Part shown: in pieces, positions 2,914 through 5,899 of the stretch
Layout: each line of letters opens with the position of its first letter
Position numbering within the stretch: position 1 is the first letter of the stretch
NCBI GenBank assembly: GCA_963716175.1
Contig: OY970296.1
Coordinates: forward strand, 2,784,001-2,848,000
DNA length: 64,000 nt
Origin: an uncultured Armatimonadetes bacterium
GTDB taxonomy: Bacteria; Armatimonadota; Hebobacteria; Hebobacterales; Hebobacteraceae
Direction of reading: 5' to 3'
Translations under genes and position numbers: made by a program
The notes under the pieces: generated by a model
Told to the model about the DNA's origin: nothing
The model's database searches: none
What the model saw: only the letters and a program-made list of their open reading frames with translations

Positions 2914-3953
2914 TCATCTCGCCCCGCTCAGGTCCCAGGTGAAGCGACGGCCCTCGTCGCTCTGCTGAACCGAGAACTGCTTGACGGTGCTGCCGGACGG
3001 GATCAGGAAGTAGTACCGCGCCTTCGCTTCCTGCCCCGGTTCCACGTCCATGCTCACTGTCTCATCCCGGCTCGCGTACAGCAACTCCTGGTTCCAGTCC
3101 AGGTTCTCGCCCTCCGTGGTCCGCACTTTCGGTGCAAGGGCACTCCACCCCAGCGACTGCGTGTCCTTTGTCGGGTTCCGAAGAGTCATGTTGAGGACCA
3201 GGTAGCGCGCGCCCCCTCCGGGGCTTCTTCCTTGATGGCCCCGGTGGTATAGCTCGTAGAGTCGAGTCGCGCGTCCCACATCCCGACCGGGCAATACGTG
3301 CCTACCACCGCGGGCACATCCGCCAGCGCGGTCGCTCCACTCTTGTCCGCCGGGTCGCCGAATGGCGCCGCGAGCCCCTTCACCTTCTTGCGCAGATCAT
3401 AGCGGATCACCAGCTGGTCCTGTGCCTTCACGATCAGCTTGGGCACTTCGCCCCGCGCTGGAACGGTGATGATCGTGTAGGCGTCGAGCTTCTGCGCTGG
3501 CTTCAGGTCGAGGCTGAGCGCTTCCTGGGTCGACTCCACCCCGATGTTCTGCGGGTACTCGCGGTTTGTGTCAGTTGCGTCCACAGCGGTGAAGGAGCAT
3601 ACACTCCATCCGACCCCGCGCTCACTCGGCTGCGGGTTCTGTAAGGTGAAGTGCACTACCAGCAGCTTCTCCTCCGCCGTCGGCACGTAGTAGTCGGCCC
3701 CAATCCGCTTGCGCTCCGCTAGGTACTCGCAGCTCTTGAGAGTGAAGTTGATCGGGCTCTCTTTGCCCAGCGTGTAGGTCAGACCCAACTCCCCCTGGTC
3801 GCCCTTGAGTTGACTCGTCCCCTGCACGACCCGCTTCTGCGGCGCGGGCGGCTTCTTCTTCGCAGCCCCCGCCGCCACGCCGCCCATCACCGCCGCCAGC
3901 GTCGCCAGGCCCAGCACCAACGCCGCCGTCGTCCTCGCTATTTTCCCTACCAT
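2914..3953 (-). pseudogene. Secreted protein with two DUF4352-like Ig-fold domains, frameshifted near 3210
   Basis: Signal peptide and two homologous domains (LLVVHFTLQNP / YLVLNMTLRNP) split across ORFs 3186-3953 and 2914-3294 at a GC/C run. An IS110 sits in its RBS. Confidence 0.65.
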
Positions 3954-3974
3954 CTCAGCCTCCTATAATGCTGC

Positions 3975-4210
3975 AACTTGGATATCCGTACTGGTTTCAC
4001 CAGTATGGAGTGGGTTATAGTCTCCGGGCCGGGGCGTCGGGCGCGAGGTCTTCATTTCAGTTACGGCGCGACCGAGAAGAGGAGAATGACCCCTCGGCAA
4101 CCGGTCCGGAGCTTGGATTGCAACCTGCGGCACGACCGCGCAATTCAGGAGTCGAAGCGGGACCGGAGGCGACGAGGAGCTCCCGCGCTGGCGGCAGATC
4201 CATTGCCGAG
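3975..4210 (+). ncRNA. Putative IS110 bridge RNA
   Basis: A 5' hairpin (TCCGTACTGG/CCAGTATGGA) and two stem-internal-loop domains whose loops match target and donor sequences. Starts just downstream of TATAAT at 3964-3969. Confidence 0.7.
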
Positions 4211-4220
4211 GAGGTGGTGT

Positions 4221-5648
4221 ATGGCGGAAGCGAGGTTGTTGTGCGTGGGCATCGATGTCTCGTCGCGCTCCCTGGAGGTCGGCTTCTGCGATGGCAGCGG
4301 AGCGCCCATCGGCGGCGTGCAGTCCTTCCCCAACGACGCAACCGGCGCGGCCGCGCTCGGCGAGGCCGTGATGGTGATCGCACGCGCGTGCGGTCGCGGC
4401 ACCCAGGTGATGGCGGCGGTGGAGTCCACCGGCGAATATCATCGGGTGGCGGCGAAGGCGCTGCGGGCAGAGACGCGTCGGACGATCCAGGTGCACGTGC
4501 TCAATCCCCGCGAGGTCAAGTGGTTCCGCAAGCTGGAGCTCAAGGACACCAAGACCGACCGGGTGGATGCCGAGCTGATCGCCCGATTCCTGGCGAAGAT
4601 CCGCCCCCAGCCCCGCGCCCCCATGCCCGAGGGATTCGAAGCGCTCCAGGATGCCACTCGCACCCGGCGCCGCTGCGTGGAGGATCGCACCTCGCTCAAG
4701 AATCGGCTCCACCGGCTGCTGCGCACTCACTTCCCCGGCTATCGGGAAACGCTGGGTGCCAAGTTCAGCGTCCGCACCCTGGTGGCGCTGGCCGCCTGCC
4801 CCTCGCCCCAGGAGCTGCTCCGGCGGGGTGAGGCTCGCCTGAGTGAGTTGCGCAACTCCGACGGCAAGCGTGTCGGAGCCGCCTTCGCCCGGAAACTGAT
4901 CGCCCTGGCGAAAGCTGCCCCCGCGCGCCAACTGCCGATGATGGCGCGTCTCTCCATCCAGGACGCGGCCGTCCGCATCCTGCAACTGAATCGTTTCCTT
5001 CACGGCATGGACGCAGCCGTCGCCCAGGAGCTGGAGCGGCTCTTCCCAGATACGGTTCTGGCTTCGGTGCCGGGCCTGGGCCCGGTCTCGGTGGCTTCCA
5101 TCCTGGCCGAGACAGCCGACATCCGTCGCTTCCCGCACAAAGAGACTTTCGTGGGCTACTGTGGGCTCTATCCCATTGCCTGGGAGAGCGGAGACACCAA
5201 GCTGCGCTTCCGCATGACCCGCAAGGGCAACCGCATGCTGAAGATGACTCTGCTGGTGGCCTCGGCCGCCGCCCGCCAATACAACCCGGCGATCCGCCAC
5301 TTCTACGCCCGCCTGCGAGCCCGAGGCAAATCCAAGAAAGCAGCCGGAGGTGCCATCGCCCGAAAGATGGCTGAGATCGTCTGGGCCGTGCTCACCTTCA
5401 ATCAACCTTGGTCGGAAGAGATCGCCCTGCGCGGAATCGCTCGGGGAGAAGAGATGGCCCAGACACCGAAGGGGGAGCGACGCCTCACTGGAGATGCCGC
5501 GGGTCAAGCCCCGATGCAATCGGGACGACCACTCAAGGCGGCGTCGAGGTCTCGCGCTCCCCAGCGTAATTCTACCATCAGCGCTGGGAAAAACAAGCCG
5601 CCACATCTCCAACTTACTCGCTATGCCAGAGGCACGATTACCCCTTGA
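4221..5648 (+). CDS. IS110-family recombinase/transposase
   Basis: GIDVS, VESTG and KTDRVDA (DEDD), VPGLG, WESG, KGNRMLK and ARKMA motifs. RBS GAGGAGG before ATG 4221. Confidence 0.95.
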   Translation: MAEARLLCVGIDVSSRSLEVGFCDGSGAPIGGVQSFPNDATGAAALGEAVMVIARACGRGTQVMAAVESTGEYHRVAAKALRAETRRTIQVHVLNPREVKWFRKLELKDTKTDRVDAELIARFLAKIRPQPRAPMPEGFEALQDATRTRRRCVEDRTSLKNRLHRLLRTHFPGYRETLGAKFSVRTLVALAACPSPQELLRRGEARLSELRNSDGKRVGAAFARKLIALAKAAPARQLPMMARLSIQDAAVRILQLNRFLHGMDAAVAQELERLFPDTVLASVPGLGPVSVASILAETADIRRFPHKETFVGYCGLYPIAWESGDTKLRFRMTRKGNRMLKMTLLVASAAARQYNPAIRHFYARLRARGKSKKAAGGAIARKMAEIVWAVLTFNQPWSEEIALRGIARGEEMAQTPKGERRLTGDAAGQAPMQSGRPLKAASRSRAPQRNSTISAGKNKPPHLQLTRYARGTITP

Positions 5649-5899
5649 CATCAGTTATTGCATCTCCTCACCCGCCGCGTGCTCCTGGGCACTCCCGTTG
5701 CCCAGCCGTAAGTCGCCCGAAGCGCAGGCACAACCCCGGCCGCGATCTGCTTCCCACTACCGCGGCTGGGGGGCAATCACCTCCCCGCTCGGAGTTGCCA
5801 CGCGTCATCTCCGTGTAACAAGCTATCTGCATCGGGCGACGGTGCGATCGCCGTCGTAATCCGATATCGGCACGTCTGGAGCGATTCCGGCCGGTTCCA

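Follow-up and report, generated by a model that had tools for sequence, protein, structure and literature searches.

An IS110-family insertion sequence with a bridge RNA whose target guides appear to read Shine-Dalgarno and start-codon sequences

Judged from its sequence, the segment at 3960-5667 of the window (the whole 64,000-nucleotide stretch of DNA that was analysed) is a 1.7 kb insertion sequence of the IS110 family that encodes a recombinase of the DEDD/Ser type and carries a bridge RNA in its left end, at about 3976-4195. The sole long sense ORF of the element, at 4221-5648 on the plus strand, is the IS110-family recombinase gene of 475 aa, preceded by a ribosome binding site GAGGAGG (4209-4215). 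Its product matches the Pfam domains DEDD_Tnp_IS110 (5.3e-29) and then Transposase_20 (2.1e-20), and the NCBIfam model NF033542, "IS110 family RNA-guided transposase", with 225 bits against a cutoff of 140 over positions 1-342 of the 343 in the profile. Among PDB chains it matches ISCro4 (1.4e-17) and IS621 (5.7e-16); the relationship to the latter is distant, with the best stretch in the C-terminal domain, and the window recombinase is ~150 aa longer. Residues D12, E68, D113, D116 and S323 are invariant in an alignment of three sequences, and an ESG motif of the protein is aligned with the ISCro4 chain. The five residues would presumably correspond to D11/E60/D102/D105/S241 named for IS621 (PMC11208158).

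On the minus strand an ORF of 562 aa, similar in layout to the hed ORF discussed below, runs from 5651 to 3963 and takes up 99% of the element. The gene into which the element is inserted lies beyond the left end, also on the minus strand (3186-3953), and specifies a protein of 255 aa with a signal-peptide-like N-terminus. Its ATG is at 3953-3951, seen on the plus strand as the CAT at 3951-3953 of the flank CATCTCAG (3951-3958), and is preceded by a spacer (3954-3959) and by a retained Shine-Dalgarno (SD) sequence, AGGAGG, at 3964-3959 of the minus strand.

The tetranucleotide CTCC stands at both junctions of the element, at 3960-3963 and at 5664-5667, and the same junction structure is present in 4/4 genomic copies: at the left junctions CTCC is followed by TATAATGCTG, and at the right junctions TTATTGCAT-CTCC is followed by the flank. 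Donor and target have a short core (CT) in common, and a long target duplication is absent. The CT at 3960-3961 is the crossover core; the CC that completes the left CTCC opens the right donor arm, the right target arm begins with the same two letters, and the left donor arm ATTGCAT (5657-5663) adjoins the right CTCC copy. This position of the core follows from the metagenomic relative L036, which has CTCT at its left junction and CTCC at its right, so that exchange must take place to the left of position 4 and the core must be the first CT. When the element and one CTCC are removed, the minus strand yields exactly the string that an earlier sequence-only reading of the locus had reconstructed as the empty site.

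The genome is a single contig of 4.56 Mb with 66% G+C and contains four copies of the element at ~100% identity, of which the three intact ones are identical. The remaining copy, L004 (G000:C1 about 782977-784690), lacks 2 bp relative to these, and a frameshift splits its recombinase gene into two frames covering residues 1-236 and 232-475. Among the sequencing runs listed for the stretch none is of RNA. In the contigs of four DNA runs neither an uninterrupted (empty) site, nor a circle junction, nor joints were found; loose ends at 3960 and 5675 in the DNA-run contigs (X1) match the flanks of the 783-kb copy.

A close homologue was found in 3/61 genomes of relatives and in 3/401 genomes of the phylum, the only carriers among those searched being the element's own genome (G000), G010 and G013, and one metagenome scan yielded 14 loci with 49-91% protein identity. 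The left ends of 14 elements were aligned, those of the window, L031-L038, L023 and L041-L044. Omitted from this alignment (A2) were L039, a near duplicate of L037 with just 2 nt of left flank, L040, which is truncated at the 5' end, L045, which is only 27% identical, and L022, which has a divergent left end and a 30-nt deletion in loop 2; L025 was used for its right flank only and stood outside the shuffle tests. Relatives from a genome-contig scan were set aside since they showed only 23-30% identity and were nearly all from Treponema. The omitted L022 (L022:1313-1560, genome G013) is probably a decayed copy, in which the 30 missing nucleotides belong to the donor-binding loop and the first ~60 nt of the left end are replaced by unrelated sequence.

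The 14 homologous left ends share one fold, on which RNAalifold and a pair count on the curated structure agree. It consists of 42 pairs, with 94.0% of cells paired (88.7% in shuffles) and compensatory changes on both sides in 13 pairs (6.0 in shuffles); 0/500 shuffles reach the observed pairing percentage or the observed count of compensated pairs, although these tests, like the shuffle tests of the guides below, overstate significance because the homologues are related. In a control in which the partner was slid by 1-3 columns pairing collapses to 29-44%. A 5' stem-loop (3987-4007, helix 1) precedes two internal loops. The target-binding loop (loop 1, 4047-4091) is closed by an outer stem (4047-4050/4088-4091) and contains a compensated inner hairpin (4063-4075). 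Its 5' strand (4051-4062) includes the left target guide CAUUUCAG (4053-4060) and ends with UU at the canonical core-binding positions (4061-4062), and its 3' strand includes the right target guide AAGAGGAG (4077-4084), followed by the handshake position at 4085. A connecting stem (4092-4096/4173-4177, helix 6), which shows no variation, is placed round the donor-binding loop (loop 2, 4100-4167); the latter has stems at 4100-4107/4160-4167 and 4111-4114/4155-4158, an inner hairpin at 4127-4139, and the handshake guide UC at 4152-4153.

The two-loop bridge RNA proposed by the sequence-only reading is borne out by this fold, and its two loops are considered real because the fold displays the layout stem, left guide, stem-loop, right guide known from IS621 (PMC11208158). 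The strings on which that proposal was built are found where it had placed them: CATTTCAG at 4053-4060, GAGGAG at 4079-4084, GGTC at 4047-4050, AGGAG at 4147-4151, and ATTGCA at 4117-4122, the last being repeated at 5657-5662 in the right end. Closure of loop 1 by GGTC/GACC is also supported, with the GACC at 4088-4091, so that the stem encloses both guide strings; G-C is replaced there by A-U in four sequences and by C-G in one. The GACC at 4070-4073 was tried as a partner of the GGTC at 4047-4050 and was ruled out, since covariation in the 14 homologues backs 4088-4091. The segments on either side of the two loops, 4028-4042 before loop 1 and 4181-4195 after loop 2, form a partly compensated basal stem. 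A search of Rfam 15 returned nothing at threshold and no bridge RNA family among its matches, the best being malK-I at 18.9 bits (gathering 60.3, E = 1.5).

The donor-binding loop fits the ends of the element itself. The left donor guide AUUGCAAC (4117-4124) has the same sense as ATTGCATC at the right end, with agreement at 7/8 positions, and a 2-nt linker comes after it; AU-UC-AGGAG (4143-4151), the right donor guide, complements CTCCT+AT of the left end when two bases are skipped. Together these guides fit a circle junction ATTGCAT-CT-CCTAT in the pattern of IS621, which has an 8-nt left donor guide and a right donor guide of nine RNA bases on seven DNA bases (PMC11208160, PMC11208158). The earlier assignments of the 5' string of loop 2 to the right end and of its 3' string to the core and left end are both upheld, and in L036 the exceptional left junction is compensated in the right donor guide, where RNA GAAGAG, in place of GAGGAG, faces DNA CTCT. 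The ends also hold the two halves of a putative sigma-70 promoter of the circle junction, recognised as a sequence match: a TATAAT -10 box with which the left end opens (3964-3969) is completed only in the circle by a TTGACA -35 box in the right end (5645-5650), 17 nt from the last base of the element. Joined ends would form TTGACA-17-TATAAT, and the arrangement of TTGACA, 17 nt, end of element is found in 13/13 complete right ends. A junction promoter of the sigma-70 type drives the bridge RNA of IS621 (PMC11208158). In the integrated form a promoter and terminator scan gave a sigma-70-like match on neither strand, and one weak terminator-like site that is within chance.

The right target guide at 4077-4084 is complementary to CTCCTCTT, and the CTCCTCT of the right flank is the antisense of a Shine-Dalgarno sequence. 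Guide and flank change together among the homologues. The guide AGAGGAG faces CTCCTCT in the window and in L032, AAAGGAG faces CTCCTTT in L031, GAAGGAG faces CTCCTTC in L035 and L037-L039, AUGAGGAG faces CTCCTCAT in L041, and GCCGGAG faces CTCCGGC in L044. Over the four variable guide positions 36/52 cells pair with the right flank, as compared to 23.5 in label shuffles, a match reached by 4/20000 shuffles. The 3' string of loop 1, proposed earlier to be complementary to CTCCTC, is accordingly a right target guide for CTCCTC(T) that tracks the right flank, and loop and target sequences do covary across homologues in that the guide-flank matches exceed those of label shuffles. A further contact follows the handshake rule of IS621, by which target position 7 is complemented by the base next to the right donor guide on its 3' side (PMC11208158): here the first handshake nucleotide (4152, directly after the right donor guide) pairs with position 7, the base directly left of the core, at 13/16 sites, with U-A, G-C and C-G pairs all represented. 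The second handshake nucleotide pairs with target position 6 at 9/16 sites, and the combined total is reached by 8/20000 label shuffles.

As the sequence-only reading had held, the element sits at SD-ATG sites. All four of its own sites (4/4) show GGAG, 6-8 nt, and ATG on the gene strand, followed by ORFs of 180-434 aa, and the same arrangement is present in five metagenomic relatives (L031, L032, L034, L041 and L042); at every SD-ATG site the recombinase gene and the target gene lie on opposite strands. Pfam gives no match in the window's own 255-aa target protein, and in 4/5 other target proteins scanned Pfam domains begin at the N-terminus. Two own-site targets have full-length N-terminal domains, Isochorismatase (10-172 of 180) and DNA methylase, the remaining two have signal-peptide-like N-termini, and the domains found in relatives are YlbF at L034 and GCV_H at L042. 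The target ORF of L043 looks unreal. Since CC follows CT in both donor and target, GGAG is rebuilt on both sides of the element and the gene keeps UAGGAGG-spacer-ATG. The earlier statement that insertion preserves most of the ribosome binding site is therefore too modest, the whole SD core being kept with GGAG regenerated on both sides.

Other relatives, L035-L038 and L044, have the same GGAG-reading guides, yet their sites are away from start codons. Four of these (group B; L035:900-944, L036:900-945, L037:800-841 and L038:900-944), which are 65-68% identical relatives, are inserted directly after a semi-conserved motif of ~35 nt with a short hairpin (GGTGA.ACC...GTGGGC..GTA.CG, then CTCC). 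The motif looks like a small repeat used as target, because the flanks further out are unrelated.

The location at SD-ATG sites might reflect survival rather than aiming, if insertion took place at any CTCCTCT and only harmless intergenic copies persisted; selection against intragenic insertions after the event could alone enrich for intergenic SD sites. Of the 949 occurrences of AGAGGAG in the genome, only 95 have an ATG 3-11 nt further on with an ORF of 100 codons or more, a small share that speaks for an enrichment of the occupied sites in SD-ATG contexts, to which selection after insertion could have added. By the same count ~90% of the motifs are away from ATG-ORF starts, many of them probably within genes, where insertions would be lost. 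Survival in place of aiming is nonetheless judged unlikely, since CAU is kept in the left guide of 9/14 aligned RNAs, since this guide covaries with the spacer, and since the relatives that lack CAU at this place (L035-L038 and L044) are those found away from starts.

The left target guide, through its conserved CAU, appears to match the start codon and the bases that precede it, although shifted by 1-4 nt from the canonical register. A 5' strand of loop 1 with CU as its last two bases is found in L035-L038, L043 and L044, where the left flank agrees in register at 5-7/8 positions (for example, CUCGUAACGCU against CTCGTAGCGCT); UU or GU takes its place in the window-type RNAs, L041 and L042, and the in-register match there is 1-2/8. 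With a canonical-register model the four occupied sites rank from 2,804th to 32,338th among 68,746 CTCC sites, and a canonical in-register left guide was ruled out for the window-type RNA on account of these poor matches and ranks. A different candidate for the left guide, UAUAGUCUCC at 4015-4025, was rejected as well, being nearly invariant, showing no tracking of the flank, and lying outside the supported loop.

When extra bases are permitted between the matched flank and CTCC, RNA CAUUUCAG is matched by CATCTCAG with one extra base at the window copy and three at L002, another of the four genomic copies, RNA CAUUUCGG of L032 by CATTTCGG with two, and RNA CAUGUCAGUU of L034 by CATGTCAGTT with four, as counted from the 8-mer CATGTCAG. 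The nine RNAs with CAU supply the ten CAT-anchored sites that were scored, and for these the match of an RNA to its own flank averages 3.5/5, as compared to 1.53 for other RNAs. A flexible-offset model, in which 0-5 extra bases are allowed before the core, ranks the L002 site first among the 68,699 CTCC sites of the genome. The score of the window copy is equalled or exceeded by just 44 unoccupied sites, that of L004 (~424th) by 423 and that of L003 (~2,530th) by 2,529; the latter two, both own sites, have a poor left-guide match under the model. Because it was framed after the sites had been seen, the flexible-offset model is a supported hypothesis and not a demonstration.

A more economical explanation would have recombination proceed in register only, from the core and the right arm CTCCTCT as a half-match, with the similarity on the left due to chance or to the shared composition of start regions. 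It draws on the in-register left-arm matches of the window-type RNA, which are at chance level, on the poor left matches at L003 and L004, and on a preprint reporting that core and one arm suffice for IS621 insertion in vitro, a property that could account for L003 and L004. Against it, the RNA changes follow the flank changes in L034 and L032, the observed CAT-anchored match is reached by only 2/5040 label permutations, the L002 site ranks first genome-wide in the flexible-offset model, and CTGAG or CTGAA precedes ATG in just 15/2170 GGAG-ATG-ORF candidates, yet in 2/4 occupied sites. In-register recombination as the full account thus seems improbable, somewhat more so than survival without aiming. 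The earlier remark that CATTTCAG is close to the flank stands insofar as this string covaries with the start-codon-proximal flank, but it needs to be qualified in that the string is 1-4 nt off the IS621 register and fits L003 and L004 poorly. That the left-end RNA is a relic which no longer guides the copies is highly implausible: although one of four copies is frameshifted, the three intact copies do not differ from one another, relatives of 49-91% identity show compensated stems, and the guides fit their own donor and their own targets.

The element is probably an active-looking, bridge-RNA-guided member of the IS110 family that is aimed at SD-ATG sites through the guides of its target loop, in a manner resembling the behaviour of IS900. 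By analogy with IS621, excision would produce a circle in which TTGACA of the right end and TATAAT of the left end meet across the junction, and the promoter so formed would transcribe the left-end RNA, with a start expected about 7 nt after 3969. The donor loop pairs with the junction ATTGCAT-CT-CCTAT, as sequence and covariation show, and on the same kind of evidence the 8-nt right guide AAGAGGAG of the target loop pairs with CTCCTCTT, the template strand of the Shine-Dalgarno sequence. The nucleotide after the right donor guide matches the base just left of the core in the way of the IS621 handshake guide, and the CAU-bearing left guide matches the start codon and the bases before it. This last pairing would have to tolerate 1-4 extra DNA bases before the core, and SD-ATG spacers of different length could thereby be accepted. 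Crossover at the CT within GGAG would place the element between SD and ATG, antisense to the gene, with GGAG regenerated twice.

The ATG of the antisense ORF lies 12 nt behind the host GGAG captured by the insertion, and the ORF terminates at a TAG (3965-3963) that shares bases with the regenerated SD. No stop interrupts this frame in L031, L032, L041 or L034, in the last of which it ends 21 nt earlier, nor in the sequence available for L033 and L042; in L035-L038 and L044, the relatives away from start codons, it is interrupted by 12-23 stops. The three codons that would be stops on the antisense strand are all avoided by the RBS-targeting recombinase genes (P about 0.06-0.08 each, from genome usage), and the recombinase genes of L035, L036, L037 and L044 have 3-6 such codons. 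Long antisense-open frames are common in this genome (72/500 GC3-rich ORFs), and since in addition few lineages were compared, the tie between the antisense ORF and RBS targeting is suggestive only. An NCBIfam search with the antisense ORF gave 0 families. Directly behind the captured host SD there is also a mini-ORF of two codons, GGAG-ATG-CAA-TAA (5651-5667, minus strand), which is in frame with the long antisense ORF that begins 3 nt later.

The antisense ORF may let host transcription and translation pass through the element to the interrupted gene. The proposal that insertion cuts target genes off from their promoters is doubtful for this reason, the ORF being of full length and conserved. 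A broader and more tentative reading, which we regard as possible but not as the likelier outcome, combines both features: the start region would be read as two words with elastic spacing by an element that is built to be passable. For the two words, the right guide and the handshake may fix the crossover in GGAG, and the CAU guide may pair with the start codon and the preceding 5-7 bases; elastic pairing of a left guide in spite of 1-4 extra DNA bases is a mode undescribed for IS621. For passability, ribosomes could run through the 1.7 kb and re-initiate at the interrupted gene, so limiting polarity.

The resemblance to IS621 (Durrant et al. 2024, PMC11208160; Hiraizumi et al. 2024, PMC11208158) covers a left-end RNA made up of a 5' stem-loop and two internal loops, loop 5' strands of the same sense as the left arm and 3' strands complementary to core and right arm, the core CT, an 8-nt left donor guide with a 2-nt linker, a right donor guide of nine bases that faces seven of the DNA, a handshake base next to it, and a sigma-70 promoter across the circle junction. 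Against the published features of IS621, the right target guide is 7-8 nt here and 4 there, the left guide ends with UU in place of CU and is 1-4 nt out of register with the flanks, and there is an extra basal stem, before loop 1 and after loop 2, that is absent from the IS621 descriptions examined. The natural target also differs, being a REP sequence for IS621 and a translation start region here.

A start region is likewise chosen by IS900 of Mycobacterium avium subsp. paratuberculosis, the target consensus of which is CATG N4-6 CNCCTT. IS900 was reported to target translation initiation signals by Doran et al. (1997, Microbiology 143:547), and start-signal targeting by an element of the IS110 family is thus already in print in the title of that report. 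Its hed ORF spans the whole element on the strand opposite to the transposase and depends on host signals (PMC8141618). The two elements are alike in having a DEDD transposase, translation-initiation targeting and an opposite-strand ORF, a likeness drawn from published descriptions of IS900. They differ in that the antisense ORF here has an ATG of its own 12 nt behind the captured SD, unlike hed as described, and in that the host here is an uncultured sediment bacterium. The element can be said to have the class of mechanism of IS621 and the targeting habit of IS900. A literature search that covered articles apart from their supplements found nothing linking bridge RNA with IS900 and no start-codon or RBS targets of bridge RNAs, and start codons are unmentioned in the consulted part of a 2026 preprint on bridge RNA diversity. 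Two features could be new, the elastic register of the left guide and an antisense ORF that is tied to RBS targeting.

Elements of the IS1111 type with seekRNA, such as ISEc11 (Siddiquee et al. 2024, PMC11187229), share the principle that a non-coding region supplies the RNA by which a DEDD transposase is brought to a specific site, with different elements choosing different sites; their RNA lies downstream of the transposase gene and they have subterminal inverted repeats, whereas the RNA here lies upstream, in the left end. ISPpu10 of Pseudomonas putida (10.64898/2026.03.19.712850) is an IS110 element for which target choice is also reported to require more than guide pairing; its additional layer is conserved intergenic sequence and structure, and here the corresponding layer would be the spacing to the start codon.

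The window element connects the 1997 report on IS900 targeting with the discovery in 2024 of bridge RNA in the IS110 family. Its guides can be read directly as a complement of the Shine-Dalgarno sequence and a complement of the start codon, and this would offer a molecular explanation for a targeting habit of the IS900 type. Should the out-of-register left guide be real, natural bridge systems tolerate bulged targets, and such tolerance would matter for off-target prediction of bridge editors. Should the antisense ORF be kept open for host expression, the unexplained hed ORF would be given a function.

Additional genes of the family were seen in the course of the analysis. Two further IS110-family genes of the same genome are each ~30% identical to the window recombinase, one just past the end of the window (L029, G000:C1:2848895-2850052) and the other at L030 (G000:C1:45070-46215). 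In the metagenomic relative L038 (L038:1201-1710) the recombinase frame stops after 170 codons, and the left end with its guides looks intact.
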